Positions 38,653 through 56,935 of a stretch of DNA of 64,000 nucleotides are shown one piece after another; the first letter of the stretch is position 1, and each line of letters starts with the position of its first letter. This DNA comes from Bacteroidia bacterium. GTDB taxonomy: Bacteria > Bacteroidota > Bacteroidia > Palsa-965. The notes under the pieces are model-generated. The model did not search any database. It was given only the letters and a program-made list of their open reading frames with translations, and was not told where the DNA came from. Both the position numbers and the translations under genes were made by a program. The DNA is taken from NCBI GenBank assembly GCA_025454955.1, contig JALONL010000006.1:284198-348197 (forward strand), given 5' to 3'.

Positions 38653-38669
38653 GAAAATTTATTGACCTG

Positions 38670-39047
38670 TTAAGCCGGCAAGGCATTCATTACTTTGTTT
38701 ACGGCAGCAGTGAGGCTTTCGGAAGTAAACGGCTTCACAATGTAATCGGCCGCACCCAGCGTCATTCCTTCGCTGATTACCGACTCCTGCCCTACTGCAC
38801 TGATCATAATTATCTGCGCCCTGATATTTTCTTCCTGCTTGAGTACTTTCAGAATATCAGTACCAATCATATCGGGCAGAATATTATCGAGCGTAATCAG
38901 ATCGGGATCAAGTTCAATGGCCAGATCAATAGCCGATTCGCCATTGGCCGCCTGCCCGGTTACTGTATATCCGGCAGCGATAAGTGCTTCGCTTATCATG
39001 GTTCGCATGTACAGCGAATCGTCAACAATAAGAACAGATTTCGACAT
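38670..39047 (-). CDS. cheY: Chemotaxis response regulator CheY
   Basis: A 125-aa ORF with VLIVDDS...DLITLD...DYIVKPF receiver-domain motifs. Confidence 0.9.
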   Translation of the reverse strand: MSKSVLIVDDSLYMRTMISEALIAAGYTVTGQAANGESAIDLAIELDPDLITLDNILPDMIGTDILKVLKQEENIRAQIIMISAVGQESVISEGMTLGAADYIVKPFTSESLTAAVNKVMNALPA

Positions 39048-39058
39048 CGTGTATGGGT

Positions 39059-39619
39059 TTAATCGTTTTGCATATTGAGTTTGTCCTGTATATCGGCTTC
39101 GGTGCGTACGAGGTGATTGAGGTGAAGCAACATAATTAACCGCGTACCGTCTTTCACCACGCCCGAAATAGCAGCCATGTCGAGCGACGAGTATTGCACA
39201 AAACCTGCCGCATCTTCAATCTGTTCTTCGTACACGTTAATGGTATCGGGCACTTCGTTTACAATTATGCCGGCTTTCACCGTTTCGTGTTCGAGCACCA
39301 GGGCATAGCGTTCCTGCAATTGCGTAGTTTTTTCGATTCCGAATTTTATTTCCGGATCGATTATGGCCAATATGTTGCCGCGAATATTTACCACGCCCAG
39401 AAAATAATCGGGCATTTGCGGTACGTGTGCAATTTTGGGGGCAGGCACAATTTCTTTGATCTTGTCGATAGACAGTGCGTACTCTTCGCGGCCAATTTTA
39501 AACACTACCAGCTGAATGCGGCGGCCGTTGGTTTCTTTTTCCTGAACTTCGGCGGCGGCTTCGCGCTTCACATCGTCGAGCGTGTAATGGCCGGGAGTAA
39601 TGGAGTTCGATGTATCCAT
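39059..39619 (-). CDS. cheW: Chemotaxis coupling protein CheW
   Basis: A 186-aa ORF with CheW-like domain features (…LVVFKIGREEYALSIDKIKEIV…, …GVVNIRGNILAIID…). Confidence 0.8.
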   Translation of the reverse strand: MDTSNSITPGHYTLDDVKREAAAEVQEKETNGRRIQLVVFKIGREEYALSIDKIKEIVPAPKIAHVPQMPDYFLGVVNIRGNILAIIDPEIKFGIEKTTQLQERYALVLEHETVKAGIIVNEVPDTINVYEEQIEDAAGFVQYSSLDMAAISGVVKDGTRLIMLLHLNHLVRTEADIQDKLNMQND

Positions 39620-39626
39620 GTCCGGC

Positions 39627-41582
39627 TCAGAGTTTAAATTTGCTTACACCGTCGAGCAGTTGCGTGGCTACATCGGCCAGGTCGCGGCTTGTGGCGGTCA
39701 CTTCGTTCATGCCAAGACTGAGTTCTTTCGACGAGGAGGCAATTTGTTCGGTGCCCGAAGCGGTTTCTTCGGCCACCACCACAATTTTCTCGATGTTTTT
39801 TACGGTCGATTGTATGGCCTGTTTCTGCGAGTTGGTGGCATCCACAATGCTGCGCGAGAGTGCGAGGGTTTCGCTGCTCATTTTCTCGATTTGCTGAAAC
39901 ACGGTTTCGGCATCTTTAGAAGCAGAGTTGCCGTTTATTACCGAACGTTCCATGGCATCAATGGCTTTGGAGGCCGAAATAATGTCTTTCTGCACTTCAC
40001 GGATTACCTTTTCAATTTCCACCGCCGAGCGGCGCGAGTCTTCGGCCAGTTTGCGTATTTCGTCGGCCACCACCGAAAAGCCGCGTCCTGCCTCGCCTGC
40101 GCGGGCAGCTTCAATGGCGGCGTTGAGGGCAAGCAGGTTGGTTTGCGAAGCAATGCCGGTAATAACGGTAAGTGCGCGTGTAATTTCTTCCGAGCGTTCG
40201 GTGAGCACGTTAATGGAAGCCGAAGACGAATGGGCCGAGCTTTGAATCTGCTGCATACTTTCCACCACCTTGCGCACAGTGCCTAAGCCTTCAGACGCAT
40301 TGGTCTTGCCCGTTTCGGCGGCCGACTGAATCAGTTCGGCCTTGGTGTTTACCTCATTCGATTCGCCGAGCACGGCATCAATAAGGCGGCTCGACTCGTC
40401 GGTTTGCTGAGCCTGTTGCTGTGTGCCTTCGGCCATTTGCTGTGTGGCTGAGGCCACTTCGCGGGTGGTGTTGCGCATTTGTTCGCCCTTGGTGAGCATT
40501 TCTTCGGCCGAAGAGGCTACCAGATTGGCCATTTTGGAAATGCGGTTGAGCAGTTGTCCCACATTATCGAGCGCATTATTGAGACCATCGCCCATGCGCT
40601 GCAATTCTTCATTATCGGTAATGCGCAGCGAAAAACGTTCGCGCAAATCGCCTTCGGCCATTTTATTTATCACGCGGCGTACTTCGTCGTTGGCTTTGTT
40701 GCGTTTTTCCACTTCCTCGTCTTTGGCCTTCAAACTCTTGCGCATCAGCCCCAGCGAGTTGTTGAGTTCAAGCATTTCGCCCGAAGTTTTGATCTTTACT
40801 TCTTCATCGAGATTGCCGCGGGCCACTTCATTTACCACCCGGTTTACTTCATGAATGGGTCTGATAATGGAACGCATAAGAATAAGTCCGAACACCACCG
40901 AAATGCCGAGCACCAAAAAAATGGCAATGGCCGTAAACGTGATGGTTTGTGCAAATGCTTCGGAAGATTCATCGCGAAGTATTTCCGATTTTTTCATAAT
41001 GGTTTCGCTCAGTGCTTCCATTTCCACGGCCAGCTTGTCGTAGGTAATTTCATATTCAGGCAAACGTGCTTTTACCATAAACTCCGCCATCGAATCGCCC
41101 GAAAAGGCAATTTTTACCAGTTCGTTGCTTACATCGGTATAAGATTGAAGCGCGGGCCTTACCGTGGCTAACTTGTCTTTTATTTCGGGCCCCAGGTCAA
41201 AAGCCGAAAGCCTGTCAATGGCCGACATGAAAGAACCCGTATGCAGGTTGAGACTTTCCCTGGTGTCTTTTACCTCATCGGCATTGGTTTCATCGGCCAC
41301 CACGGCACTAAGCACATCGGCCTTAATGGCATCGTGCGCCATGTCGGCTGTCATTTGCTGATAAATGGCACCGGATACATCCACGATACCATTTTTTGTT
41401 TTTTCTATCCGGCTCAAAGAGAAATAGGCATACACGCCCAGCGCAATAAAGAACAAGGCGTTTATTGCAATGATGAGTCCGACTTTTGTAATGATTTTCA
41501 TGGGGGGGAGTCTGTTGTTATTGGTGTGAAGTGTAGCGTGTAGTGTGTATATGCTTTTATTTTCTAGAAAGAAACTATACAT
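39627..41582 (-). CDS. Methyl-accepting chemotaxis protein (N-terminal TM sensor, HAMP, MCP signalling domain)
   Basis: A 651-aa ORF with two TM helices, a HAMP domain (…[21 protein letters not shown]…) and the highly conserved MCP tip (…[40 protein letters not shown]…). Confidence 0.9.
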
Positions 41583-43414: not shown

Positions 43415-43580
43415 CAAAAGGGGTGCTGAGGGGCAAATTGCCGCGAGGCTGAGATCATACCCGGTGTAATACATTTTCTCAAAAAATGTGTACACGCACC
43501 TGAACAAGGTAATTCTTGCGTAGGGACAGGATCCGGTGAAAGAAGCGTTTCCCTTTAACGAAGAATTCACCGGGTCGCAA
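43415..43580 (+). ncRNA. TPP (thiamine pyrophosphate) riboswitch with downstream expression-platform hairpin
   Basis: GGGGUGC...CUGAGA..UACCC...ACCUGAACAAGGUAAUUCUUGCGUAGGGA matches the THI-element conserved cores (CUGAGA, ACCUGA.C, GGAUAAU-like GGUAAUU, GCGUAGGGA). It is followed by the hairpin CCGGTGAA...TTCACCGG 15 nt before the ATG of the TonB-dependent transporter. Confidence 0.8.
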
Positions 43581-43591: not shown

Positions 43592-45991
43592 ATGAAAAAC
43601 ACATTATTCAGCCTCGCGGTACTGTGGATACCGCTGTGCGCAACGGCCCAGCTCAGACTGAGTGGAACCGTATCAGACCCAAACGGGCAACCAGTAAGTT
43701 TTGCCGCCGTGCAGATTTCGGGCACGTTCAGCGGGGCAATTACCAATGCCGCCGGGCAGTATCAGCTTCTCAATTTAAGCCGCGGCACGTATTCCATAAA
43801 GGCAAGCTGCCTCGGCTACACGCCCGAAATCAAAACCATTACGCTGAACAGCGACACCGTAGTTAATTTCCAACTCACTGCCGCCGCGTATCTCCAGCAG
43901 GAAGTGGTGGTGCAATCGACCAGGGCCAATGCCAACTCGGCCATGGCAAGCACCGAAGTAAGCAAAGACGATCTGGCGCAGGTAAATTACGGGCAGGATT
44001 TGCCCATACTGCTCAACCTGCTACCCTCGGTAGTGACCACTTCCGATGCCGGTGCGGGCGTGGGTTACACGGGCATACGCATACGCGGCACCGATGCCTC
44101 GCGCATTAATGTGACCATTAACGGCATTCCGGTAAACGATGCCGAATCGCAGGGTGTGTTTTGGGTGAATATGCCCGACTTTGCCTCGTCGGTGCAAAGC
44201 ATTCAGGTGCAGCGCGGCGTGGGCACGTCAACCAACGGAGCCGGTGCGTTTGGCGGTTCGGTAAATATGCAGACTGATGATTTGCGCGACTCGGCCTATA
44301 CCGATTTGGTGGTGTCGGCAGGCTCGTTCAATACGCGGCGCGTGTCGTTTAAAACAGGCACAGGGCTAATCAAAAAACACTGGGCTTTCGACGGCCGCCT
44401 TTCGCGTATCAGCAGCGACGGGTTTATAGACCGGGCATCGTCTGAACTGCAATCGTGGTACGGCAGCGGAGGCTGGTATGGCGATCGTTTTTTTGTGAAA
44501 GCCGTGGTATTTTCGGGCAACGAAAAAACGTATCAGGCATGGTACGGTGTGCCCGAAGATTCGGTGCGTGCCGGAAATTATACCTACAATCCTGCCGGAG
44601 AAATTTACACGCCACAGGGCAATGTAATATACTACGACAACGAAACCGACAATTACCGACAAACGCATTACCAGCTCATCAGCGCCTATACCCTCTCGCC
44701 CGAGTGGACGCTCAACACTGCGCTGCACGCCACACGCGGACTGGGCTACTACGAGCAATACAGGGCTGGCGAAACTTTTGCCGAATATAATTTGCCCGAT
44801 TACATTTCGGGTAACGACACCATTTCCACCACCGATCTTGTGCGCCGTCTCTGGCTCGACAATTGGTTTTACGGCCTCACCTTTTCGCTCAACGGCCGCA
44901 TAAACAACCGCTGGCAAATTGTGGCAGGCGGTGCAGCCAATCAGTACAACGGCGATCACTACGGCACAGTGGAATGGACGCAGGCCCCGCTCGTGCAGCC
45001 GCGCGATTTTAAATACTACTTCAACAACGGTCTCAAAAACGATATTACCGTTTACCTGAAATCGAACTGGCAGGCCACCAAAACAATCAACCTTTTTGGC
45101 GATGTGCAGGCGCGTTACGTAAGCTACACGTTTGAAGGATTCGACCGCAATGCCAACAACGTGACGCAGGAAGTGAGTTACTTTTTCCTGAATCCCAAAG
45201 CCGGTGTGACTTTTACGCCCAATGATGCACACTCGTTTTACGCCTCGGTGAGTGTGGGCAACAAAGAACCCAACCGCGACGATCTCACCGAATCGTCGCC
45301 CGAAAGCCGACCGAAACACGAAACACTTTACGACGGCGAGGCAGGCTGGAAATACACCCGGCGCAAACTCCGCGCAGGAGTCAATTTGTATTACATGTAT
45401 TACATCAATCAGCTTGTGGTAACCGGCAAACTGAATGATGTGGGCGCATACACGCGGCAGAATGTAGATCGCAGCTACCGCGCCGGTGTGGAACTGGAAG
45501 CCGCCTGGCAGCCGTTTAAAAAATTGGGCGTGGCCGGAAACCTTACACTGAGCCAAAACCGCATTCTCGATTTCGAAGAGTTTGTGGATGATTTTGATAA
45601 TGGCGGACAGGTGATAAACAAATTTGCCGAAACCGATATTGCGCTTTCGCCCGCCGTGGTGGCTGCCGCGCAGCTCAACTGGATGCCTGCGAAACCGCTG
45701 CTGTTTACGCTTACTGCAAAACATGTGGGAAGACAATACTTAGACAACACCACTAATACAAACCGCAGCATTGATCCGTTTACGGTAAGTGATTTCAGGG
45801 CGCAGTGGAAATTTCCGGTAAAGGAAATGCGCGAACTTACGCTGGGCGTACAGGTAAACAACCTGCTTAATTTGCGGTACAGCAACAATGGCTACACCTT
45901 CGGCTTCATTGCCGGCGGGCCACAGCAGTTCAATTATTTTTTCCCGCAGGCGGGGCGTAATTTTATGATTATGCTTACTGCAAGATTTTAA
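43592..45991 (+). CDS. TonB-dependent outer-membrane transporter (CarboxypepD_reg + plug + barrel), riboswitch-controlled; likely thiamine/thiamine-precursor uptake
   Basis: A 799-aa ORF with a signal peptide, a CarboxypepD_reg-like N-terminus (LSGTVSDPNGQPVSFAAVQISG…GQYQL) and a plug (…GIRIRGTDASRINVTINGIPVND…). It ends in a terminal Phe. Confidence 0.85.
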   Translation: MKNTLFSLAVLWIPLCATAQLRLSGTVSDPNGQPVSFAAVQISGTFSGAITNAAGQYQLLNLSRGTYSIKASCLGYTPEIKTITLNSDTVVNFQLTAAAYLQQEVVVQSTRANANSAMASTEVSKDDLAQVNYGQDLPILLNLLPSVVTTSDAGAGVGYTGIRIRGTDASRINVTINGIPVNDAESQGVFWVNMPDFASSVQSIQVQRGVGTSTNGAGAFGGSVNMQTDDLRDSAYTDLVVSAGSFNTRRVSFKTGTGLIKKHWAFDGRLSRISSDGFIDRASSELQSWYGSGGWYGDRFFVKAVVFSGNEKTYQAWYGVPEDSVRAGNYTYNPAGEIYTPQGNVIYYDNETDNYRQTHYQLISAYTLSPEWTLNTALHATRGLGYYEQYRAGETFAEYNLPDYISGNDTISTTDLVRRLWLDNWFYGLTFSLNGRINNRWQIVAGGAANQYNGDHYGTVEWTQAPLVQPRDFKYYFNNGLKNDITVYLKSNWQATKTINLFGDVQARYVSYTFEGFDRNANNVTQEVSYFFLNPKAGVTFTPNDAHSFYASVSVGNKEPNRDDLTESSPESRPKHETLYDGEAGWKYTRRKLRAGVNLYYMYYINQLVVTGKLNDVGAYTRQNVDRSYRAGVELEAAWQPFKKLGVAGNLTLSQNRILDFEEFVDDFDNGGQVINKFAETDIALSPAVVAAAQLNWMPAKPLLFTLTAKHVGRQYLDNTTNTNRSIDPFTVSDFRAQWKFPVKEMRELTLGVQVNNLLNLRYSNNGYTFGFIAGGPQQFNYFFPQAGRNFMIMLTARF

Positions 45992-46006: not shown

Positions 46007-46045
46007 CTCAAAACGCCGCTCTTTTCAGGGCGGCGTTTTTATTAT
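46007..46045 (+). terminator. Rho-independent terminator after the TonB-dependent transporter
   Basis: AAAACGCCGC-TCTTTTCAGG-GCGGCGTTTT followed by TATTAT. Confidence 0.65.
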
Positions 46046-46423: not shown

Positions 46424-47860
46424 ATGTACATCCACAATCATCCTTCAAACAGTCCGTTTCTGTATGAATCGGAAGGAAAATTTACCGCCGGTGCACTTGA
46501 GGCGTACAATGAATTGCTGCGAAACGAAACAGACTGGCTCGTGCGTGTAATGCTGTTGCGTTTCCCGAAATCGTCCAACGGCGGTTACGAATTTGCTTCG
46601 GAAGCAAACTGGGAACAACTGCCTCCGCCCGATTTGCGCGATGGCAAAGGTCCGTATGCCGCGCTGGTAAATGCGCTCGAACTTGGTGCCGAAGAACGTT
46701 TGCTGCTCATCCTCACGCTGGCGCGGCAAATGAGCAAGCACTCGCTCAAGGTGCTTACGGATATTCTGATGACTCAGGCAGAGTATCACGACGAAATTGG
46801 CTGTTACTTCGTTACACCCAACCGTTCGCTGGTGTTTACGCTCAATACGGTGCTTACGCTCATTGCGGGCAATCATGCAGGACGGCGCGGTATGGCGTTT
46901 ACCAAACTGGTGCAGGAAAGTAAATTGGTGCGTGAGCAGATTCTTGAATTTGAAACACCTACCAATTTCAGCATTCAGTTTGGCGAGGGCGAAAAAGCAC
47001 CGGTGCTGGCCAAAGAGTATGTCACATTTCTGCTCAGCGGAAAACCGCCACGTCCTGATTTTGGCGAGAATTTCCCGGCCAAATTGGTAAGCACCAATCT
47101 CGACTGGCATCACCTCGTGGTACAGAAAGCCACGCGCGACGAAATAAACTGGGTGGTGCAATGGATCAGCCACGGCAGGCCGTTTACCGAACGTGTGGGC
47201 AGCAGGGCAATAAGCAGTTTTCCGGTGTTGTTTTTCGGCCCTCCCGGCACGGGCAAAACACTGGCGGCAAAACTCATCGGCAAGCAGTTTGGCAAAATGG
47301 TATTTCGTATCGACCTCTCGATGATGGTGAGCAAATACATCGGCGAAACCGAAAAAAACCTCGCCCGCCTGTTTGACCGCGCACAGGGCAAAGACTGGAT
47401 TCTGTTCTTCGACGAGGCCGATTCGCTCTTCAGCAAACGCACACAGGTAAACGACTCGCACGATAAATGGGCCAACCTCGAAACCAGCTACCTCCTGCAG
47501 CGCATCGAAGAATACGACGGTCTCTGCATCCTCGCCACCAACCTGCGCGACAATATTGATGCCGCCATGCTGCGTCGTTTTCAATACACCATCCATTTCC
47601 CGCGTCCCACAGAGGAACTCCGCGAACAACTCTGGAAAAGCCTGCTGCCAAACGGCTATGAGTTCGACCAGCTCGACTTCCGCAAACTCTGCGTGCAGGA
47701 TTTAACCGGTGCCAACATATCCAACGTACTCAACCACGCCTGCCTCGCCGCCGAAGCCGAGGGGCGAACGGTGTTGAAGAACTCAGAAATTGTACAGTTC
47801 ATGGCACTGGAGCTGATGAAGGAAAGTCGTACACTGAAATCGACCGATCATATTAAGTAA
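46424..47860 (+). CDS. AAA+ ATPase of the eCIS-associated (Afp15/Pvc15-like, CDC48-type) family
   Basis: A 478-aa ORF. The C-terminal AAA domain has Walker A FFGPPGTGKTLAAKLIG, Walker B ILFFDEAD, sensor-1 ILATN and an arginine finger region. …MMVSKYIGETEKNLARLFDRA… is the hallmark stretch of this ATPase family. The N-terminal ~270 aa are of unknown function. Confidence 0.75.
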   Translation: MYIHNHPSNSPFLYESEGKFTAGALEAYNELLRNETDWLVRVMLLRFPKSSNGGYEFASEANWEQLPPPDLRDGKGPYAALVNALELGAEERLLLILTLARQMSKHSLKVLTDILMTQAEYHDEIGCYFVTPNRSLVFTLNTVLTLIAGNHAGRRGMAFTKLVQESKLVREQILEFETPTNFSIQFGEGEKAPVLAKEYVTFLLSGKPPRPDFGENFPAKLVSTNLDWHHLVVQKATRDEINWVVQWISHGRPFTERVGSRAISSFPVLFFGPPGTGKTLAAKLIGKQFGKMVFRIDLSMMVSKYIGETEKNLARLFDRAQGKDWILFFDEADSLFSKRTQVNDSHDKWANLETSYLLQRIEEYDGLCILATNLRDNIDAAMLRRFQYTIHFPRPTEELREQLWKSLLPNGYEFDQLDFRKLCVQDLTGANISNVLNHACLAAEAEGRTVLKNSEIVQFMALELMKESRTLKSTDHIK

Positions 47861-47892: not shown

Positions 47893-50800
47893 ATGTCGCA
47901 TCGCCGCAATTTATATTCCTATCACGACGACGATTATTTCAAAACCCCGCAGCAACGCGCCTCCGAAGCCGCCAACAAAGCACAGGCCGATGCCGAGATG
48001 GATTTTGAGTATAACACCTGGCCGCGTTTGCAGCAAAAAATGGACGCGGGTCTTACACTCACGAAATATGAGTTGTATGATACGCGCATGTTTGGCGGGC
48101 CGCTGCACCGGACAAAGACTTTTGCCTACGTGCGTGCGCAGCAGAATGCGGAGAAGCTGAGTGTGGCTGCGGCCGATTCGGCTGAGGAGAAACAGGCGGA
48201 TGCGGTGGCCAACGCCGTGGCCACTGGCGGCGAGGTGCAAACCACCTCTACTGCCTCAGGGAAAACCGAAAGTTCGTCGCTTACTGTTTCGCCGGAGTTT
48301 GAGGAAAAACTGCTGGCAGGTAAAGGCCAGGGCGAACCACTCAACAGTGCATTGCGTGGGGAGATGGAAAGCAAAATGAATGGCGATTTCGGTGATGTGC
48401 GTGTGCATACCGGTGCTGATGCAGCGGAGATGAGCGCGGAGATAAATGCGCGGGCGTTTACGCATGGGAAAGATGTGTACCTGGGCAGCGGGGAGAGTGT
48501 GGAGGATAAGGAGTTGATGGCGCATGAGTTGGTGCATACGATCACTCCGGGAAATATCATTAAGCGCAAAGGAATAAACGATCCGTTGAATTACGGACTG
48601 CACCCCGAAGTAAAACCTAATTTCTTAAAAGGCAAAACCCTGTTAATGGATGCCGACGGCGATGGTTATCAGGAATTAGAACTTGTATTATATCTCGATA
48701 AAGACAAGGTTTTACAATTACAGGTGCATCATCTCGATAGCGACGTGTGGACCAACCGGCAGCACTTCCAGTCAGATAAAGAAGCATTGGTGGTATTAAA
48801 CTTTCAGACTCTGGGTGCAGCACATAAAACCTCAAAATTTACGCCCAACGATACCGAACTGAATACAAATTATATCAATCAGTTCAAACTCTATGATGAA
48901 GTCGATCCGGATAAAAAATCATATCAGCTAAATTTTGGTGCCGATGTGAATTTCAGACAGAATGGACAATACCATGCTGCTTTGGGCCCACACAAAATTA
49001 CATTCACTGTTAACCCATCAAAAATAAAGAAGCGCAGTGAAGATATTTCGTTTACCGAAACACGAAAGGCCGAAGCATTATCAGGCCCAATATATACGTT
49101 TCAGGCAGGGCAGCAGGGCGATGAAATAGAACTGCAAATTCAACAGGATTTCGAAGCTGCCATTCCTCAGGAAATGATAGCACAGAACCGAACCTCGGCA
49201 TATTCCATTTATGGATATATGAAAAGGCTAAATGGAAAAATTGTCCGATGGACAGAGCCGGTAATGGTTTATGCCGTAAACAATCAAATGCCGGCTTCAT
49301 TAAATCCGGTATATCAGGATGAAAAACTCATAGAACTGGGCATATCCGGATCATTCCTGCCTGATATAACCATTCATTATTATACGCTCTCCGAAAAAAA
49401 CAAATTCTATCATAATCGAAAAATACAACTTCATTTTTCAGGCCCTGCATTGTTCGGCGGTAAAGACTTCAGATCATTTATCCTCGTTAATAATTTCCCC
49501 GTAGCCAATTCAAACTTCCGTGGGGAAGATGATTACCATTCACTTTTAGATTATGAAGCACCAGCCATGCTGAATAATCAGGGTAAACCGTTGTCGGTGG
49601 AAGAAGATATTGCAAAAACAGAGGCCATACTTCTGCAACTGATGCAGCGACTTGTTCTCGACGGGAGTATGAATGAAATGGTTTTTCTTTCCTGGAAAGA
49701 ATACCTCCTGTCAAGAACTGTTCTTGAGGTAGTAAAGAATGCTAAAGTAAATAGTGAAGAAGAAAAAGCGCAAAGAAATTCCATTATTTTCAACGCAGCC
49801 ATGAAAGCCGACGCGTTTGCGTACCAGCTCATGAGGGAAACGAAAGCTTATGGCTATGTGCTTTCAAACAGTTATCCATCAAAAACAATTATCGTCGGGA
49901 ACTGGTCTAAAGAAGAGAAAGAATTTGAAGAGTTACATGCTTTATTAGATAATTATGTATTGAATATTGCTTCACGGAATACCGGCAATACTCCACCCGA
50001 TTATATTCACGACATTACATCATCGCCATCTGCTCAGCCCTACAGTGTTCAATACCGCTTACCTACCGAAGAAGAATTTACAGCCTACGAAAAGAGCAAA
50101 AAACAAGAAACAGACAGTATAAGAACCAACCTGAGAAACGAAGCAAAGGCCGAAGGATTAAATGAAGCGCAACAGCATGATAAACTTGTGGGGTCATACT
50201 CACATTTTGCCACTTACCGCAACCAGTTAAAAGAAATTGAGAAAAAGCAGTACCTGCAAAAAATAAATGCCGTTTTCTATGGCACTACTCCCGAACATAT
50301 TAACCAGTTTAATACGTCGTCAAGTACAAATGCGGTGGCGGTGCCGCTGCCGATTTGGGTGTATGTGGAAAACAACGAATGGCATATTGTGGATTTAATT
50401 AATCCTCAACAGCCATTCAAAGCTGCAGTACCGTATTATTCAGAAAACGGGAGCAATCCGCCCGAAGCACTTTTCGAGCAGCTAAACCACGAAAAGCATT
50501 TGCCCAAAGGTTATATATACTATCAGATCGGCGACCAAAAGAAAGTGGTAATTACCCAGGGCGAACAAACACAGTGGTATGATATTTTGGGTTATATCGC
50601 ACTGGGATTGGGGTTTGTAGGATTAAGCATAGCTACTTTTGGAGCAGCACTGCCTGCCAAAATTGCCGTACTGGGCACCGTAGTAAGCTACGCCAGCATA
50701 ATTACCGGCGCACTGAGCACCGCCGGCGACATGTGGGACAGTTACAAACACGGGCAGCTTACCGATCAGACACTCATGCTCAATATGCTCGATCTGGCCG

Positions 50801-52770
50801 GAGCATTGCTGCAATTAAAAACATTGTCGATAAGCCTTCTGCTTCGTTCAGAAACTATGGCCGCAAAACTGCCCAAAGCATTGCAGGCAGCCAAATTGGT
50901 TTACATGCCGCTGAAAATTGGCGAATACGCCACCGAAGGCACAAGACTATTTATCATTACTGCCGATGCTGCCGAACAAATTACTCAGATCATAAATGCT
51001 CCGGGCGACGATGAAGCCAAAAAGCGGGCATTGGTTACACTACTCTCGCAAATGGCACTTTCGTTGAGCATGTACGTGCTCGACGTGAAAGACTATGGCG
51101 ATGAAGTAAACTTAGTGCGTAATGCCGGAAAAAAATCAGGAGCAACCACACATTCACCACATACCGAACCTGATATAAATATTAAGATAAATGAACTATC
51201 CGGCAATGAAAATGTGGGCAAATCGGTAGTGGAGGCGGCTGGCGAAACTCAGGAAGAAATTCTCGGCGGTGACTCCGAAACACCAGTCACTACGGCACAA
51301 CAACGTGTGACGTATGGAAAGGACGAAAAGGGTTTTTACCGTACCAATCTCGACCAGCCTCACATACAACAACGTATAACCGAAGCCGAGTTCTACAACG
51401 CACGGGTAAGCATTGCCAATGCGCAGGTCAAAAAAACAGGCAAAATCGAAAACCCCGCCAAGGTTTCGGTCGATGCGTTGTTGCTGCTTGTGGCCTTTGC
51501 CGATCTGCAAATACAAGCCGTGAATTATCCGGCAGGCATTCTCGCCGGTGTGTCCACCGCCACGCTGTTGCTCCGCAAAGGTATGCGGGGCATGATTGGC
51601 AAACTCAAAGCAAAGAACCCCGGCATCAGCGACAAAGAATTATTGGATGAACTTAAAAAGACGATTCACAGCGATGGGGAACTAAACCGTTCGTTGAAGG
51701 AAAAGAATTTTAACTCTATTGATGAGGTGGATTTTGAAATGCCCGATGGCTCGAAGAAAAAGTTTGACGAGATAGCGCAGGAAGAAATTGACCATTCAAA
51801 ATTGCCCGACGAGGAGCGTAAGAAGATTGAGGCCGAACAGGAGGCAGAGCTAAAACCTGAGCAAAAGGAAAAGATCACCACGGAGGACGAAACGGTAAAG
51901 CCGAAAGAGGAAACACCTGAGATAAAACCGGAAATTACGTCTAAGAAAAAGATTGAGTACTGGGCAGAGGATCAGCTAACGCATGTACCCGGCAACCCGG
52001 AGTACCTGAAAATTATGCTTAATGGCGATCCGAAGCAGATTATTACGCTCAAGCGGGAGAAGGATAAGGATTGGATTGTACAGAGAGGAACGAAAGAAGC
52101 GAACGATAATAATAAGTTGACGAATGAAGAGATTTTGGAGAGAGTGCCGGAGAAGTATCGTAAAAAAAGTGAGACAATAAATCCGAATGAGGATGTAACA
52201 CAGAATACCTCCAATGAGGTTGAGAATAAAAAATCTGAAATACAAAAAGACAATTCAGAAAAATTAACATCTAAAAAGGCTGAGACCGGTGAACCTCCTT
52301 TTGCAAAGAGGAAAACAATATTGAAAGTTGGAGAGCCAATACTTAATGGTAAAATAAACCGGGTGCGTGCTGGCGATGAGAAGAAAATTGTTATTATCGG
52401 ATTAGATATGAACGGGCATGTAATTCCAATTGCCAAAGAATTACAAAGTCAGGGATTTGACGTGGAAATTTTAGAGGATAATTTTCTAAATGGTCGTACA
52501 TTTGAAATTGATGGTAAACAATGGACAGTTACCGAGGCTTTTAATGATATGGTTGAAAATGATAAATACGATGGCATGAGAGGGTTAGATAATAAAATTT
52601 TGCCAGAGTTTTTAGATCAAATACCAATGTATAAGCTAAACGAACAATGGATAACAGAACATAAAACGTCTGGAAAAACGATTCTTGATGTTGGAGGGCC
52701 TGCTAACTCAAATAAAACAAGCACCTTCTATAATATGGAAATTAACTCAATAAATTGGAACACGCAATGA
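47893..52770 (+). CDS. Giant polymorphic-toxin-like protein (1625 aa): N-terminal DUF4157 zincin-like domain, long central region with TM helices, K/E-rich disordered linker, variable C-terminal (toxin) domain
   Basis: Residues ~150-215 (coordinates ~48340-48540) read RGEMESKMNGDFGDVRVHTGADAAEMSAEINARAFTHGKDVYLGSGESVEDKELMAHELVHTI. This matches the DUF4157 consensus (fG.DFs.VRvH.d..A...a..l.ArAfT.G.diyf........LlAHEL.Hv). Hydrophobic helices lie at ~50580-50740 (ILGYIALGLGFVGLSIATFGAALPAKIAVLGTVVSYASIITGAL). A ~147-aa charged linker, repeated twice more downstream, precedes a unique C-terminal ~190 aa. Confidence 0.8.
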   Translation: MSHRRNLYSYHDDDYFKTPQQRASEAANKAQADAEMDFEYNTWPRLQQKMDAGLTLTKYELYDTRMFGGPLHRTKTFAYVRAQQNAEKLSVAAADSAEEKQADAVANAVATGGEVQTTSTASGKTESSSLTVSPEFEEKLLAGKGQGEPLNSALRGEMESKMNGDFGDVRVHTGADAAEMSAEINARAFTHGKDVYLGSGESVEDKELMAHELVHTITPGNIIKRKGINDPLNYGLHPEVKPNFLKGKTLLMDADGDGYQELELVLYLDKDKVLQLQVHHLDSDVWTNRQHFQSDKEALVVLNFQTLGAAHKTSKFTPNDTELNTNYINQFKLYDEVDPDKKSYQLNFGADVNFRQNGQYHAALGPHKITFTVNPSKIKKRSEDISFTETRKAEALSGPIYTFQAGQQGDEIELQIQQDFEAAIPQEMIAQNRTSAYSIYGYMKRLNGKIVRWTEPVMVYAVNNQMPASLNPVYQDEKLIELGISGSFLPDITIHYYTLSEKNKFYHNRKIQLHFSGPALFGGKDFRSFILVNNFPVANSNFRGEDDYHSLLDYEAPAMLNNQGKPLSVEEDIAKTEAILLQLMQRLVLDGSMNEMVFLSWKEYLLSRTVLEVVKNAKVNSEEEKAQRNSIIFNAAMKADAFAYQLMRETKAYGYVLSNSYPSKTIIVGNWSKEEKEFEELHALLDNYVLNIASRNTGNTPPDYIHDITSSPSAQPYSVQYRLPTEEEFTAYEKSKKQETDSIRTNLRNEAKAEGLNEAQQHDKLVGSYSHFATYRNQLKEIEKKQYLQKINAVFYGTTPEHINQFNTSSSTNAVAVPLPIWVYVENNEWHIVDLINPQQPFKAAVPYYSENGSNPPEALFEQLNHEKHLPKGYIYYQIGDQKKVVITQGEQTQWYDILGYIALGLGFVGLSIATFGAALPAKIAVLGTVVSYASIITGALSTAGDMWDSYKHGQLTDQTLMLNMLDLAGALLQLKTLSISLLLRSETMAAKLPKALQAAKLVYMPLKIGEYATEGTRLFIITADAAEQITQIINAPGDDEAKKRALVTLLSQMALSLSMYVLDVKDYGDEVNLVRNAGKKSGATTHSPHTEPDINIKINELSGNENVGKSVVEAAGETQEEILGGDSETPVTTAQQRVTYGKDEKGFYRTNLDQPHIQQRITEAEFYNARVSIANAQVKKTGKIENPAKVSVDALLLLVAFADLQIQAVNYPAGILAGVSTATLLLRKGMRGMIGKLKAKNPGISDKELLDELKKTIHSDGELNRSLKEKNFNSIDEVDFEMPDGSKKKFDEIAQEEIDHSKLPDEERKKIEAEQEAELKPEQKEKITTEDETVKPKEETPEIKPEITSKKKIEYWAEDQLTHVPGNPEYLKIMLNGDPKQIITLKREKDKDWIVQRGTKEANDNNKLTNEEILERVPEKYRKKSETINPNEDVTQNTSNEVENKKSEIQKDNSEKLTSKKAETGEPPFAKRKTILKVGEPILNGKINRVRAGDEKKIVIIGLDMNGHVIPIAKELQSQGFDVEILEDNFLNGRTFEIDGKQWTVTEAFNDMVENDKYDGMRGLDNKILPEFLDQIPMYKLNEQWITEHKTSGKTILDVGGPANSNKTSTFYNMEINSINWNTQ
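51717..52157 (+). repeat. Copy 1 of a ~440-bp direct repeat (encodes the K/E-rich pre-toxin linker) inside the giant gene
   Basis: TCTATTGATGAGGTGGATTTTGAAATGCCCGATGGCTCGAAGAAAAAGTTTGACGAGATAGCGCAGGAAGAAATTGACC... is near-identical to 53377-53820 and 54648-55095. Confidence 0.85.
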
Positions 52771-53270
52771 ATTCAGAAATCGTAAATTTAGCAAATAGAA
52801 TACAGATAAAAGTATTAAATCATTTCTCGTCAGTAATTGCAAATTTTGCTATAGAGATTGATGTTAAATACAGTGAGGAAAAAAACCTTCACATAATTAA
52901 CGATTCATTTAGACAAAGTAACTTTAGAATGGATATCTTCTTTCGAAGACCAAGTGCCAATAAAGTACTTCTCTTTACTTTTTATGATGGATATAATGGG
53001 AATAAGGAATTATCATATAAAATTGATTTTAAAATCTCGTCGCCGGGCAATAAACGTAACATCTATTCAGCAAAAGTACTATTTAAGCATTTGAATATTC
53101 CATACAGTTTCAATAATTTTTTTCTCCAACAAGGGGTAGATAATTTGTTTCTTCAAACTGATATTTTCTTAAAAAATATTGACGAATTGCTTGCTCTGCC
53201 AGAAATACAAACAATACTTTACACTGATGCTTGGATAGATATTCCGATAGATATGAGTGAGTACAAATAA
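52755..53270 (+). CDS. Putative cognate immunity protein of the resident C-terminal toxin domain (171 aa)
   Basis: Its start ATG overlaps the stop of the giant gene (CGCAATGAATTC, ATGA overlap). It is AT-rich, has no signal peptide and sits in the typical position of an immunity gene. Confidence 0.5.
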   Translation: MEHAMNSEIVNLANRIQIKVLNHFSSVIANFAIEIDVKYSEEKNLHIINDSFRQSNFRMDIFFRRPSANKVLLFTFYDGYNGNKELSYKIDFKISSPGNKRNIYSAKVLFKHLNIPYSFNNFFLQQGVDNLFLQTDIFLKNIDELLALPEIQTILYTDAWIDIPIDMSEYK

Positions 53271-53337
53271 TGGATAGGAATTTACATGTGAAGTCTCCCC
53301 GGAAACAGATAAATCTGAAAAATCAATTCACGATGAT

Positions 53338-54342
53338 GTGGAGTTAACCAAATCACTGCAAGAAAAAGGATTGACTTCTATTGACGATGTAGAGTTTGAA
53401 ATGCCCGATGGCTCGAAGAAAAAGTTTGACGAGATAGCGCAGGAAGAAATTGACCATTCAAAATTGCCCGACGAGGAGCGCAGGAAGATTGAAGCAGAAC
53501 AGGAGGAAGAGCTAAAACCAGAGCAAAACGAAAAGGCCACCACGGAGGACGAAACGGTAAAGCCGAAAGAGGAAACACCTGAGATAAAACCGGAAATTAC
53601 GTCTGAGAAAAGGATTGAGTACTGGGCAGAGGATCAGCTAACGCATGAACCCGGTAACCCGGAGTACCTGAAAATTATGCTTAATGGTGATCCGAAACAG
53701 ATTATTACGCTCAAGCGGGAGAAGGATAAGGATTGGATTGTACAGAGAGGAACGAAAGAAGCGAACGATAATAATAAGTTGACGAATGAGGAGATTTTGG
53801 AAAGGGTGCCGGAGAGGTATAGGAATAAATATCAGCCTAATGAAGTTAAATATAAAGATGGATGGACAAAGGAAAGAGTTCTTTCAAAGCCCAAAGGAGA
53901 GAGAGAGGTCCCTGAAATTTATTTATCAAATGATTACATTGAGAACCACTTGAGTATTTTTGAAAAAGAAGGCATTGTTTCTAGGATTGTTCTAAAGACA
54001 GCATATGATAAATATGGAATTGGTAAGCCGGATAAAGGGAAAACAGAGTTTGTCAGCTTGAAATCAGATATAGATAAACTCATTTCGGATTCAAATGGTG
54101 ACATCGAAATCTTATCAAGTGTACTTGGTGTCAGTAAAGAACAATTATCGGGTGGATTAGTACGTGTAGATTTTTATTTAAATTCACAGAATAAAGTTCA
54201 CATGCCATCAGGCAACGAGTTTGGTACAAATAGCCAATGGATTCCCGGTGGGAAATTGCCAACTGGGCAGCTTGAAGCAATCATTAAAACTGAAGGACTG
54301 ATTGTGAACGTAGATTACATTGTAAAAGACATAACATGGTAA
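53338..54342 (+). CDS. Orphan toxin cassette 2: linker repeat copy 2 fused to a different C-terminal domain (~175 aa); lacks the DUF4157/TM N-terminal part
   Basis: Residues ~14-160 are about 95% identical to the linker of the giant protein (SIDDVEFEMPDGSKKKFDEIAQEEIDHSKLPDEER...ILERVPERYR). The sequence then diverges completely (NKYQPNEVKYKDGW...IVNVDYIVKDITW). Confidence 0.6.
   Translation: MELTKSLQEKGLTSIDDVEFEMPDGSKKKFDEIAQEEIDHSKLPDEERRKIEAEQEEELKPEQNEKATTEDETVKPKEETPEIKPEITSEKRIEYWAEDQLTHEPGNPEYLKIMLNGDPKQIITLKREKDKDWIVQRGTKEANDNNKLTNEEILERVPERYRNKYQPNEVKYKDGWTKERVLSKPKGEREVPEIYLSNDYIENHLSIFEKEGIVSRIVLKTAYDKYGIGKPDKGKTEFVSLKSDIDKLISDSNGDIEILSSVLGVSKEQLSGGLVRVDFYLNSQNKVHMPSGNEFGTNSQWIPGGKLPTGQLEAIIKTEGLIVNVDYIVKDITW
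53377..53820 (+). repeat. Copy 2 of the ~440-bp direct repeat
   Basis: Near-identical nucleotide sequence to 51717-52157. Confidence 0.85.
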
Positions 54343-54569
54343 CAGAAATTTATTGTAAACCCTGGGATTTTACCTTATACCAAGTAAATAATGACTTGGT
54401 AATTAGTGTGGTTTTTTTTGGCTTAGTGGACTATCATAGAAGTTTTAGGATTGAAACTGGTACAGTTGATACCAGTAACTATGAATCCTTAGGAATTCTA
54501 TCTGAAAAAATTCGAAGAGCACCTGATGAGTACTCTGAGTCAGAAGTTAAACCAGCTATATTTTTTTAA
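54336..54569 (+). CDS. Small putative immunity protein for cassette 2 (77 aa)
   Basis: Its start overlaps the cassette-2 stop (CATGGTAA). It has a hydrophobic segment (LVISVVFFGLV). Confidence 0.35.
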   Translation: MVTEIYCKPWDFTLYQVNNDLVISVVFFGLVDYHRSFRIETGTVDTSNYESLGILSEKIRRAPDEYSESEVKPAIFF

Positions 54570-54639
54570 TGATTTTCGATTAATTGAAAAGAAATTTGAT
54601 TAATCGGATTTTTGATTCTATTTTCCTTTAATGAAAGGG

Positions 54640-55531
54640 CTCCACTTCTATTGACGATGTAGAGTTTGAAATGCCCGATGGTTCAAAGAAAAAGTTTGAC
54701 GAGATAGCGCAGGAAGAAATTGACCATTCAAAATTGCCCGACGAGGAACGTAAGAAGATTGAGGCTGAACAGGAAGCAGCGCTAAAACCTGAGCAAAAGT
54801 AAAAGACCACCACGGAGGACGAAACGGTAAAGCCGAAAGAGGAAACACCTGAGATAAAACCGGAAATTACGTCTGAGAAAAAGATTGAGTACTGGGCAGA
54901 GGATCAGCTTACGTATGAACCCGGCAACCCGGAGTACTTGAAAATTATGCTCAATGGTGATCCGAAACAGATTATTACGCTCAAGCGGGAAAAGGATAAG
55001 GATTGGATTGTAGAGTCAGGAACGAAAGAAGCGAACGATAATAATAAGTTGAAGGATGATGAGATTTTGGAGAAGGTGCCGGAGAAGTATAAAAGTAAAA
55101 AAAATGGGAATGAGTGGAAAAGCGTCCAGAAAATCAAGAATAAATACCCAGATGAAAAAATGCCTTCTGATGGTGTACTATATGGAATAGCTGAAATTAA
55201 AGACGGGCTAATCCAGTCTATTGGAAATAAGGGTAATAATTTTAATGAAATTGATTTTGTCGTAACAACAAAAGGCGAACTCATAATTGGGAAAAAACAT
55301 CATTTCCTAGGGAATGCCTTGGAAGTAGAAGCCGCTGGAACACTAAAAATTGTAAATGGGAAAGTCAAAAAAATAACAAACGCTTCAGGACATTATTTAC
55401 CATCTGTTGAAGAAACTCTTAACTTTGAAGCTGTATTCAAAAACTTAGGAATCAATACCACTAATACAGCATTAGAGATATATTATATCGACGGAAACAA
55501 ATTAAAATCAACTACAAAATTTTTGAAGTAA
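54640..55531 (+). pseudogene. Orphan toxin cassette 3: linker repeat copy 3 with an in-frame nonsense codon (TAA at 54799-54801, GAA in copies 1/2) fused to a third distinct C-terminal domain
   Basis: In GAGCAAAAG TAA AAGACCACCACGGAGGAC the third codon is GAA in the other copies (EQKEKITTED becomes EQK*KTTTED). The distal ORF 54938..55531 encodes the remainder plus a unique C-terminal domain (…GKKHHFLGNALEVEAAGTLKIVNGKVKKITNASGHYLP…). Confidence 0.6.
54648..55095 (+). repeat. Copy 3 of the ~440-bp direct repeat (slightly more diverged)
   Basis: It shares the TCTATTGACGATGTAGAGTTTGAAATGCCCGATGG... start and aligns to copies 1 and 2 throughout. Confidence 0.8.
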
Positions 55532-56046
55532 TGGAATACACAGAGTTAATTAATACTATTCATAAAGCAGATTTCAATATCAACAAGCATAATCTTTCAG
55601 CAATTGATATTGATAAAATTTGTGCTGTGCCTGATAAATTTGACTTTATGAAATCTCTTTTTGAAAATTTCGACTCCCGATTTTGCGAAGGATTACTGTT
55701 AACCTGTCCTTGTTTATGGACAAATTTCACTCTTAAAGATTGGGAAAAAATTATAGTTTCTATATCTCCAAGGGTTAAATTAAATGACAACATTACTTTT
55801 CATATAAATAATAATTCAGGATACGCAGATGTGATATTCATAAGACGATACTTCAATATAGACATCGAAAATTTAATTGAGAAATTACCTCAAATGCTTA
55901 GCGATGATAAGAAAAAAATAAGAGACTTTATTTCATTTTATGATGAAAAAATTTGCAAAAATAAAAATGAGATTACCGAAGACCTCAATGACTTCTACAA
56001 TATTTCGTTTGAGGAGTTAAGTGACTATGTAGCTCACATGAAATAA
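55531..56046 (+). CDS. Putative immunity protein for cassette 3 (171 aa)
   Basis: Its start overlaps the cassette-3 stop (GAAGTAATGG, TAATG overlap). It is cysteine-containing and AT-rich, with no signal peptide. Confidence 0.45.
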   Translation: MEYTELINTIHKADFNINKHNLSAIDIDKICAVPDKFDFMKSLFENFDSRFCEGLLLTCPCLWTNFTLKDWEKIIVSISPRVKLNDNITFHINNNSGYADVIFIRRYFNIDIENLIEKLPQMLSDDKKKIRDFISFYDEKICKNKNEITEDLNDFYNISFEELSDYVAHMK

Positions 56047-56070
56047 GATTTTAATTTATAATTCGACTTC

Positions 56071-56307
56071 ATGAATATTTCATTTGAAATAATATCGAAA
56101 GGCAGTTTGTTAGTTCATTACCATAACAAAACTGCTCTTATCAGCGGAGAACTTGTTTTTTCCCCGCCAGTATTTTATGCCGATCTATCTTCTTTAATTT
56201 ATTGGCAGCCTCCATATGAAATGGATGCAATATCTCAAAGCGAAAAAAGCGATATAATTTCGTTTTTAATAAGTCAAAATACAGGAACAAAAATTGTGTT
56301 TGATTAA
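56071..56307 (+). CDS. Small hypothetical protein (78 aa), candidate orphan immunity gene
   Basis: ORF in the AT-rich immunity island; no recognisable domain. Confidence 0.3.
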   Translation: MNISFEIISKGSLLVHYHNKTALISGELVFSPPVFYADLSSLIYWQPPYEMDAISQSEKSDIISFLISQNTGTKIVFD

Positions 56308-56401
56308 TAGTAATTGAGAAATTTTGATCGGAAAGTCTGGGGGTGAGTTGTAAATTTTCCTATAGTATCAGTTCGGTGAAAGTTAGTAGTTTTGAGCGTA
56401 G

Positions 56402-56935
56402 TTGTTTTTTGAAAGATTTCAATCTGATGCTCAAACAAAGATAAATATGCAAAACATAGACATAAAAGTAAATGAATGTCAATCAACACTAACCTCAGTT
56501 TTTACTAAAAACGAGGATAATTTTTCACATCATTGGAACATAAAAATTGAGGCTGGTCCCCATTCATTTTACTTAGAATTTTTGCAATTAGAAAACTCGC
56601 AGTCTATTTTTGATCTTTCGAATAAGTCATTTAGAATTAGCGATACAGATTTATTACAGTTGCAGTCCTGTTTCATCAATGATTCGGGGATTAAGATTGC
56701 GAATCAAATTCAAATTTCATTTGATGAATTTGATAGTGAAATAAGAAAAATCCATTCAAAAGTAAAGCTGAATTTTAATTCATATATCGTGAGTGTAGAA
56801 ACAGATATGTTATTTGCTGGATATAATTTTTATGAGGTTCCCGAAATCAATATAGAAAGGATTATTATCGAAAAAAAATTAGGTGAAATTAGAGTTCAAG
56901 ATATTGGCATTAATAATAGGCTATATAATTACTAA
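56402..56935 (+). CDS. Hypothetical protein (about 165 aa; likely start MQNIDIK at 56447), candidate orphan immunity gene
   Basis: ORF in the AT-rich island; no recognisable domain. Confidence 0.35.
   Translation: MFFERFQSDAQTKINMQNIDIKVNECQSTLTSVFTKNEDNFSHHWNIKIEAGPHSFYLEFLQLENSQSIFDLSNKSFRISDTDLLQLQSCFINDSGIKIANQIQISFDEFDSEIRKIHSKVKLNFNSYIVSVETDMLFAGYNFYEVPEINIERIIIEKKLGEIRVQDIGINNRLYNY

Follow-up and report, generated by a model that had tools for sequence, protein, structure and literature searches.

A CIS-type ATPase gene and a giant toxin gene lie in tandem

The window analyzed here (the whole stretch of DNA under study, 64,000 nt of JALONL010000006.1) is a 64-kb piece of a 365-kb JGI metagenome contig from a member of the Bacteroidia. 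Its main subject is a pair of genes on the forward strand, one encoding an AAA+ ATPase of the contractile injection system (CIS) family and the other a giant polymorphic toxin. The ATPase gene (46424 to 47860, +) is an open reading frame (ORF) with an ATG start that encodes 478 aa, and it lies exactly where the original prediction, made from the nucleotide sequence alone, had placed it. The AAA motifs picked out at that time, GPPGTGKT (residues 272 to 279), SKYIGETEKNLARLF, and ILFFDEAD (containing the Walker B residues D330/E331), are all present, and the Pfam family AAA (PF00004) matches residues 268 to 393 (E = 3e-27). An identical protein is held by NCBI as MCU0433083.1, from a metagenome-assembled genome (MAG) labeled "Bacteroidia bacterium."

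The toxin gene (47893 to 52770, +; 1,625 aa) starts 32 nt past the ATPase stop codon. Its product is indeed, as predicted, a DUF4157 protein: PF13699 (DUF4157, now named "eCIS_core" in Pfam, after the extracellular CISs or eCISs) matches residues 149 to 217 with an E value of 5e-21. On the other side of the ATPase gene lies a gene for a TonB-dependent receptor (43592 to 45991), and the separate terminator that had been proposed for that transcription unit was found as a hairpin with a 13-bp stem and a T-run (46010 to 46039, +). The ATPase gene thus appears to open a new transcription unit after this hairpin.

The ATPase belongs to the CIS family

The product of 46424 to 47860 is a member of the CIS ATPase family, in its short form with a single AAA module. 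Generic libraries show it merely as "AAA," with CDC48/p97 D2 domains as its best solved relatives (125 bits), and CIS ATPases match it over its whole length (259 to 491 bits). The best full-length plasmid match is the ATPase of Aureibacter tunicatorum plasmid pAT3 (38% identity over 420 residues, N-terminal domain included; E = 5e-86), the gene for which lies between a tape measure gene and a series of genes running DUF5908-VgrG-PAAR-gp25-...-DUF4255-sheath-tube-tube. In addition, the AAA module is 44% identical (E = 1e-46) to that of a 728-aa ATPase from a canonical Afp/PVC-type cluster on Serratia plasmid pELP1.10; the gene for this protein, the Afp15/Pvc15 equivalent, is flanked by tape measure and Pvc16 genes. 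A hidden Markov model (HMM) of the AAA module gave 351 bits for the window ATPase, 221 bits for the Afp15/Pvc15 equivalent, and 74 to 97 bits for CDC48 D1 and D2, VAT, p97, and FtsH.

In a neighbor-joining tree of 93 AAA modules (200 bootstrap replicates and a small outgroup of five sequences), ATPases defined as CIS ATPases by their gene context, together with the window copy, were split from CDC48, p97, VAT, and FtsH in 200/200 replicates. The assignment to the CIS family therefore stands, as the window ATPase groups with CIS ATPases, the Afp15/Pvc15 equivalent among them, and apart from FtsH. The original prediction of an eCIS-type ATPase is also borne out by full-length alignment to ATPases encoded within CIS clusters and by the gene contexts of homologues. 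Long forms of at least 600 aa (about 600 to 1,150 aa), which include the Afp15/Pvc15 equivalent, formed a clade of their own (159/200). Two apparent in-cluster relatives (L072 and L092; 49% and 61% identical over the best segment, with N-terminal domains 26 to 30% identical) are frameshifted and were left out.

A comparison with ClpV from type VI secretion systems (T6SSs), which had also been suggested, proved to be beside the point, as the window ATPase is a classical-clade, CDC48-like AAA protein and not of the ClpB type. Its match to ClpA reaches only E = 0.006, and its fold neighbors are classical-clade proteins, with ClpA and ClpB far lower.

The ATPase is predicted to be an active unfoldase with a fast-evolving N-terminal domain

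An AlphaFold model of the ATPase, built on a 41-sequence alignment, had a mean predicted local distance difference test score (pLDDT) of 87. It shows an ordered, mostly helical N-terminal domain with two winged-helix-like units (residues about 1 to 230; 46424 to 47113), for which nothing credible was found in Pfam at E ≤ 1, followed by a single classical AAA module (residues about 266 to 470; 47219 to 47833). There is no tandem D1-plus-D2 arrangement, and this short form is common to 135 nonidentical homologues from the Bacteroidota and other groups, mostly encoded in clusters. The working parts of the motor are all intact: the Walker A lysine K278, pore loop 1 (Y305-I306-G307), the Walker B residues D330/E331, the sensor 1 residue N373, and the arginine fingers R384/R385. 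Among the short-form homologues, K278, G307, D330, E331, R384, and R385 are invariant (135/135), and position 305 in the pore loop is aromatic in every one.

Compared with the AAA module, the N-terminal domain has diverged much more rapidly. Identity to family members is 21% for the N-terminal domain versus 50% for the AAA module, and within the sub-clade described below it is 31% versus 66%, as would be expected of a domain that determines substrate specificity. The best explanation of these features, by sequence and by analogy, is that the protein is a predicted active hexameric AAA+ unfoldase with the function of Afp15, Pvc15, and Alg15, consisting of a specificity domain and one AAA module.

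The toxin gene heads a field of displaced cassettes

In its architecture, the region from 47893 to 57489 is a polymorphic toxin locus that includes displaced toxin/immunity cassettes. At the N terminus of the 1,625-aa protein, residues 1 to 148 (47893 to 48336) are rich in disorder-promoting residues (a fraction of 0.61 to 0.65, judged by composition only). They are followed by the zincin-like DUF4157 domain (residues 149 to 217; 48337 to 48543), which carries HELVH at residues 211 to 215; the HExxHxxQ signature described by Zhang et al. (2012) here reads HELVHTIT, the Q not being kept. Similarity to other DUF4157 proteins is confined to residues ~85 to 235. Farther along lie segments resembling transmembrane (TM) helices (residues 896 to 943, 50578 to 50721; residues 1189 to 1211, 51457 to 51525), a constant pretoxin region (residues 1263 to 1432), and a variable C-terminal domain of 193 aa (residues 1433 to 1625; 52189 to 52767). 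The part of the gene that encodes the pretoxin region includes the reference copy of a 300-nt direct repeat (51646 to 51945, +).

Downstream, all on the forward strand, the repeat recurs at the head of two orphan toxin cassettes. The toxin stop codon is overlapped by a candidate immunity gene for the main tip (52767 to 53270; 167 aa). Cassette 1 follows (53308 to 54342; repeat copy at 53308 to 53607, 86% identity), with an ORF of 334 aa (53338 to 54342) whose first 168 residues correspond to cargo residues 1263 to 1432 and which then continues into a different C-terminal domain of ~166 aa; after it comes a small ORF of 77 aa (54336 to 54569), again a candidate immunity gene. Cassette 2 (54578 to 55531; repeat copy at 54578 to 54877, 80% identity) contains an ORF of 197 aa (54938 to 55531), the first 56 residues of which correspond to cargo residues 1372 to 1427 and the remainder to yet another C-terminal domain of ~140 aa, and its stop codon is overlapped by the start of a candidate immunity gene of 171 aa (55531 to 56046). 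These three immunity candidates are named by position. A 148-aa SUKH/SMI1_KNR4-family gene (57043 to 57489), recognized by Pfam and belonging to a classical polymorphic-toxin immunity family, closes the field. The GC content falls from ~0.49 to 0.34 to 0.36 over 52 to 58 kb, and the low-GC field proper (52700 to 57500, +) consists of orphan toxin tips together with small genes that are candidates for an immunity function. The 300-nt repeat is likely to be a recombination substrate for the exchange of toxin tips.

Neither the three toxin tips nor their candidate immunity genes gave anything credible in Pfam at E ≤ 1. Since none of the tips matches a Pfam family, they may represent novel types of toxin domain. 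For the C-terminal toxin domain of the main ORF, AlphaFold modeling from a single sequence gave an unusable result (pLDDT 35). The tip of cassette 2 carries KKHHFLG...SGHYLP motifs. Among relatives of the locus, one partner protein has the layout DUF4157-PT-HINT-GIY-YIG and is followed by Imm26, then by WHH with SUKH and AHH with Imm11, and the partners of other relatives have SUKH and Imm74 genes after them.

The N-terminal region of the cargo is lineage restricted. An exhaustive HMMER search with residues 1 to 148 found four relatives in 1.8 billion representatives; the region is always N-terminal in these proteins, two of which are giants. A protein search with residues 1 to 240 returned generic DUF4157 domains only. 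Within the sub-clade, cargo proteins begin with variants of one start motif (MSHRRNLYSYHDDD, MSH-NLFAHEEDDE, M-RRYQFAHDEDD, MSHRDYQYEREDKK, and M-RQYDNADKDD), and an element of ~85 aa is common to three cargos paired with the closest ATPases, even in the absence of DUF4157.

The pair is recurrently detached from structural genes in a distinct sub-clade

Gene order was compared across 160 loci sampled among the matches listed (the first 600 of each homologue scan) from GTDB genomes and JGI metagenomes, together with loci obtained by exact look-up. The 160 loci form a sample rather than a census, and the matches listed did not include the contig of the window itself. The loci, designated by L-numbers where a label is needed below, were viewed with flanks of ±10 kb and annotated with our own ORF calls and with iterative HMMs seeded on the annotated Aureibacter cluster; they are not phylogenetically independent.

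The typical layout is a baseplate and a tape measure gene followed by at least one DUF4157 cargo gene and the ATPase gene, in either order. The window ATPase falls in a sub-clade (193/200 bootstraps) whose members are 43 to 66% identical to it and whose surroundings differ from this layout. Among the 80 short-form homologues outside the sub-clade whose flanks were adequate, 66 are accompanied within 10 kb by a tape measure gene or a structural CIS gene, whereas for seven of the eight sub-clade members with good flanks, no CIS gene occurs that close (versus 14/80 elsewhere; Fisher P = 1.2e-4, the loci being nonindependent). The gene immediately upstream of the ATPase gene is a tape measure or DUF4157 gene in 55/124 loci outside the sub-clade and in 0/11 within it. 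A gene for a large protein directly follows the ATPase gene in 8 of these 11 (1,625, 1,852, 1,775, 1,723, 1,367, 1,037, 824, and 542 aa), and DUF4157 is detectable in six of the eight. The flanking genes are ordinary housekeeping genes, for example, for glycosyltransferases, Ile-tRNA synthetase, and a Mur ligase. In the window, likewise, the ATPase gene lies outside any CIS cluster, adjoining neither a tape measure nor a terminator gene, and the toxin gene is not at the 3' end of an eCIS operon. A recurrent arrangement of ATPase first and giant toxin second, detached from structural genes, is thus shown to be coherent in a distinct sub-clade.

In two loci (L006, positions 1 to 15200, and L104, the whole locus), cargo islands contain two or three ATPase paralogues, which fall into two types. 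The "terminal" type comes after several pairs of a small DUF4157 gene (460 to 610 aa) and a small ORF, and the "leader" type, to which the window's sub-clade corresponds, comes before a larger DUF4157 protein. Detached pairs of ATPase and giant toxin have arisen beyond this sub-clade as well. Aureibacter tunicatorum, whose genome is complete, has a full CIS cluster with its own ATPase on pAT3, and detached pairs of this kind lie on pAT2 (with a 1,460-aa LysM protein) and pAT6 (with a 1,443-aa endonuclease toxin). The pAT3 tape measure protein is annotated at 3,843 aa (L009, 8452 to 19983) against a usual 450 to 600 aa; such a length would point to a tube that is very long or to fusion with another function. 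In five loci of Firmicutes and Myxococcota (L074, L079, L084, L085, and L088), CIS-type ATPases of 500 to 780 aa are directly followed by giants (1,527 to 3,291 aa), and no tail genes were visible in the fetched flanks; because of these loci, the pairing of an ATPase with a giant protein may be widespread beyond the Bacteroidota.

A tape measure gene lies elsewhere in the window

The original prediction had described the window as free of eCIS structural genes. That description holds for sheath, tube, VgrG/spike, PAAR, gp25, baseplate, and terminator genes, none of which was found in the 64-kb window by an unfiltered six-frame scan with HMMs built from annotated CIS clusters. It fails for one core CIS gene, which encodes a tape measure protein of 525 aa (3852 to 5429, −), matches PF19268 over its full length (E = 2e-76), and is also named a CIS tape measure protein by NCBI. 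The gene lies 41 kb from the ATPase gene and on the opposite strand. An intact DDE transposase gene (27611 to 29167, −; DDE_Tnp_1_6/DUF772) is situated between the tape measure and ATPase modules and could have brought about rearrangement locally.

The tape measure gene is followed immediately downstream by a gene for a 486-aa protein resembling tetratricopeptide repeat (TPR) proteins (2055 to 3515, −), and the third gene of this module encodes a 511-aa P-loop NTPase (434 to 1969, −) with weak STAND/ORC/GajA-type matches and a match to phrog_13260. Possible roles for the TPR and NTPase proteins are in regulation or in assembly. The idea that the 511-aa protein might be a diverged second ATPase of the Afp15 type was discarded, as it shows no similarity. 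The gene order 1,367 aa, 356 to 360 aa, 1,360 aa, GreA, HIT, tape measure, 486 aa, 511 aa, PriA, NYN is kept in five genomes (L003, L098, L099, L100, and L181), in which the identity of the tape measure protein goes down to 44%. Because this synteny is kept, the dispersal of the tape measure module is old and stable and no recent accident. The flank of the L003 contig, found through Logan, holds PriA, NYN, hydroxylase, patatin, thioredoxin, lactamase, and TetR genes and no CIS genes.

The three large genes that stand upstream of GreA-HIT-tape measure in all five related genomes occupy 6755 to 16393 (−) in the window, encoding 1,367 aa (12290 to 16393), 360 aa (11164 to 12246), and 1,360 aa (6755 to 10837). 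They belong to no Pfam or PHROG family, save for a weak FlgD_ig match at one C terminus, and PHROGs likewise gave nothing for the tape measure and TPR proteins. The three could be cell-surface proteins or very divergent tail components.

Homologues of the 486-aa protein tie the tape measure module to the ATPase-toxin module, as they lie inside or beside ATPase/DUF4157 cargo islands in five loci (L006, at full length with E = 7e-44, L096, L097, L101, and L104). In the islands of L006 and L104, the gene stands between the two ATPase types on the opposite strand, and in L097, a lone tape measure gene and a 486-aa homologue lie 5 kb from the ATPase gene. In a relative (contig Ga0654411_0000027), a distance of 17 kb, occupied by PriA and ~12 housekeeping genes, separates the tape measure module from an ATPase-DUF4157 pair of the same orientation. 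NCBI accession numbers suggest that the same MAG as the window's holds a second module, with an ATPase 66% identical to the window ATPase and a 1,852-aa partner without detectable DUF4157.

Comparison with known systems

A close parallel is AlgoCIS of Algoriphagus machipongonensis, like the window a system from the Bacteroidota. Its cargos Cgo1 and Cgo2 lie in the tube lumen and have an N-terminal region followed by DUF4157 (PMC8894135). The signal for loading is their disordered N-terminal region, and the process requires the ATPase Alg15 and its Walker B glutamate; Alg15 is needed for loading and yet is absent from the particle (10.64898/2026.05.27.728243). Alg15 apparently shares the short architecture of the window ATPase: its Walker B glutamate is E292, compared with E331 here, which points to an N-terminal domain of ~200 aa and one AAA module. 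The window toxin resembles Cgo1 and Cgo2 in its layout of N-terminal region (possibly disordered, to judge by composition), DUF4157, and variable C-terminal domain; at 1,625 aa it is larger than the AlgoCIS cargos (up to 1,228 aa) and comes with orphan cassettes and candidate immunity genes. The genes for Alg15 and its cargos are part of the AlgoCIS cluster, whereas the window pair is detached, with the ATPase gene first and the cargo gene second.

Afp15 of Serratia Afp and Pvc15 of Photorhabdus PVC, which have been implicated in payload selection and loading via N-terminal signals (PMC11495950), belong to the same AAA clade as the window ATPase (ingroup 200/200). They differ from it in length (~700 to 730 aa), in having a longer N-terminal part (D1 plus D2), and in falling in the separate long-form clade, and their genes always lie between those for the tape measure protein (Afp14) and the terminator (Afp16), which the window ATPase gene does not. 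N-terminal DUF4157 has been presented both as a marker of polymorphic toxins of the PVC type, under the name "PVC-metallopeptidase" (Zhang 2012, PMC3482391), and as an eCIS core marker with long linkers, specific to eCISs with an odds ratio of 2614 (Geller 2021, PMC8213781). PVC payloads lack DUF4157 (10.64898/2026.05.27.728243). The window toxin shares with PVC-type and other eCIS-associated DUF4157 toxins the HExxH motif, a linker of >1,000 aa, a variable C-terminal toxin, and cassette-type diversification. Those toxins are described at the 3' ends of eCIS operons, many without immunity genes, whereas the window toxin is unlinked from such an operon, is led by its own ATPase gene, and is accompanied by candidate immunity genes and orphan cassettes as in Rhs/CdiA loci.

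The resemblance to the auxiliary effector islands of the T6SS (VgrG/PAAR, chaperone, effector, and immunity genes) is one of logic only. These remote loci feed their machine in trans, and in both cases a delivery adaptor, a putative one in the window, accompanies the effector and immunity genes. The proteins themselves are unrelated: the T6SS adaptor is a spike or chaperone, and the window adaptor is a predicted ATP-driven unfoldase for which loading in trans is proposed.

A proposed satellite loader-plus-cargo module

We consider it probable, with moderate confidence, that the window pair is a satellite loader-plus-cargo module feeding a CIS presumed to be encoded elsewhere in the genome. Of the two possibilities raised in the original prediction, a trans-acting cargo island fits the observations better than particle-independent action of the ATPase and the DUF4157 protein, given the tape measure gene in the window, the recurrence of the 486-aa family, and the situation in Aureibacter. 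The presumed CIS may be an eCIS, or it may be anchored to the cell and T6SS-iv-like, as in Aureispira, which has DUF4157 candidates as well. The particle itself is assumed for this genome, since sheath, tube, and baseplate genes of the lineage were not seen in the loci viewed (~10 kb around each).

Such a module might work as follows. The 32-nt gap and the upstream terminator suggest that the ATPase and the 1,625-aa toxin would be cotranscribed. The fast-evolving N-terminal domain of the ATPase would then recognize the disorder-rich N terminus of the toxin, and, by analogy with Alg15 and Pvc15, the Y-I-G pore loop would use ATP to unfold the toxin and thread it into a CIS particle's inner tube. 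The gene 41 kb away may encode the tape measure of this particle, with the sheath, tube, and baseplate genes presumably elsewhere. To judge from the architecture of the locus, the variable C-terminal domain would act as the toxin after injection, and the downstream immunity gene would shield siblings. Finally, the orphan cassettes may replace the toxin tip by recombination through the 300-nt homology block.

Several points weigh against this reading. No sheath, tube, spike, or baseplate gene of the lineage was found in the 64-kb window, within 10 kb of the eight sub-clade ATPase loci (save for one baseplate-like match in L097), or within 10 kb of the five tape measure loci. DUF4157 is dispensable for AlgoCIS loading (10.64898/2026.05.27.728243) and was not detectable in the partner giants of L004, L007, L010, and L011, so that its presence is no proof of CIS delivery. 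The shared N-terminal cargo motif is found in five or six sequences only, with four HMMER relatives, too few for a family of loading tags. The immunity genes are assigned by position alone, and the main toxin tip has no Pfam match and no usable predicted structure. The loci compared are a nonindependent sample among the matches listed, with our own ORF calls and HMMs. In a separate IMG/VR scan with an alignment of Bacteroidota sheath proteins, none of the 80 contigs obtained derived from samples in which this lineage occurs.

A milder alternative is that private, coevolving loader-cargo pairs may be mobile plug-in modules that set the toxins of a shared CIS particle. More fundamentally different is a toxin system independent of any CIS, in which no contractile tail would be needed by the ATPase, the tape-measure-like protein, and the giant DUF4157 toxin; the ATPase might, for instance, hold the toxin unfolded or else extract or translocate it, with export by some other means such as the type IX secretion system, lysis, or membrane insertion through the TM segments. 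We regard this as fairly unlikely, a chance that it owes to the fact that no sheath, tube, or baseplate gene of the lineage was seen in flanks of ~10 kb. It would account for ~15 loci of the lineage that lack a structural CIS gene (apart from the baseplate-like match in L097), for the position of the tape measure module, which lies within housekeeping synteny of deep conservation rather than in a tail cluster, for the TM-like segments of the cargo, for a gene order inverted relative to canonical clusters, and for ATPase-giant pairs without visible tail genes in Firmicutes and Myxococcota (L074, L079, L084, and L085). However, no role is known for a tape measure protein other than in the assembly of tail tubes, the rest of the ATPase family is overwhelmingly linked to CISs, DUF4157 is highly specific to eCISs (as quantified by Geller 2021, PMC8213781), detached pairs coexist with a full cluster in Aureibacter, and a view of ±10 kb per locus covers a small part of each genome. 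An improbable form of the same idea is a Bacteroidia lineage equipped with an Afp15-like unfoldase, tape-measure-like, TPR, and P-loop NTPase proteins, and giant toxins and no tail at all, the loader and the tape measure having been co-opted for toxin export or membrane insertion.

The ATPase, cargo, and tape measure genes could also be nonfunctional leftovers of a rearranged CIS cluster in decay, as might be suggested by the scattering of core genes over 41 kb and both strands with a transposase gene between them and by the low GC content, of foreign origin, of the cassette field. We find this quite improbable, because every ORF is intact, all catalytic residues of the ATPase are conserved, and the tape measure module is syntenic in five genomes at identities down to 44%. 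Furthermore, the detached arrangement recurs in a well-supported sub-clade from many metagenomes with proteins 43 to 66% identical, which implies long-term purifying selection.

Lastly, the notion that the ATPase belongs to an Iet-type (IetA/IteA) or other antiphage defense system with the giant protein as effector, which draws on a shared classical AAA module (NCBIfam IteA_antiphage, the best NCBIfam match, 117 bits; PADLOC IetA, 125 bits) and on the weak GajA-type match of the 511-aa P-loop neighbor of the tape measure protein, is extremely improbable and effectively refuted by the family cutoff and the tree: 117 bits is far below the NCBIfam cutoff of 510, both matches cover the AAA module only and leave the N-terminal domain unmatched, compared with the full-length matches to CIS ATPases, no protease gene of the IetS type adjoins the window ATPase gene, and the gene context is otherwise different, the partner being a DUF4157 polymorphic toxin with candidate immunity cassettes.

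Other features of the window

Farther upstream of the ATPase-toxin pair, beyond the TonB-dependent receptor gene, lie a porin gene and a che operon. The latter is a chemotaxis-type operon (36322 to 41582, −) encoding a methyl-accepting chemotaxis protein with HAMP domains, CheW, a CheY-like receiver, and CheA beside an OprB-type porin gene; such operons are uncommon in the phylum Bacteroidota. The thiamine pyrophosphate (TPP) riboswitch that had been proposed to control the TonB-dependent receptor gene received weak, subthreshold support: RF00059 matches 43419 to 43543 (+), just 5' of that gene, over the whole model with 28.2 bits (gathering score, 54.3; E = 0.0026), and this match is either a divergent THI element or due to chance. 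Two adjoining adenylate/guanylate cyclase genes, one of them fused to a 7TMR-DISM sensor domain, occupy 23184 to 26890 (−), and an HD-domain gene lies next to them on the opposite strand (26899 to 27495).

Conclusions

The ATPase family, its role in loading, DUF4157 cargos, and PVC-type polymorphic toxins were already known. Two things were not found described in the literature searched, namely, a clade of CIS ATPases uncoupled from the structural operon and leading a giant toxin gene and a tape measure gene accompanied by genes for a TPR protein and an NTPase in housekeeping synteny. If eCIS particles are to be engineered as tools for protein delivery, the main question still open is how payloads are selected and loaded. 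Natural loaders tied to one giant cargo suggest that specificity resides in cognate pairs of ATPase N-terminal domain and cargo N terminus, and such ATPase-cargo pairs are ready material for swap experiments. Their location away from the structural operon suggests that they act in trans. Because surveys based on operons count only genes at the 3' end of a cluster, the payload repertoire of these particles may be larger than those surveys report, and the pairs point to unannotated giant polymorphic toxins in environmental Bacteroidota.

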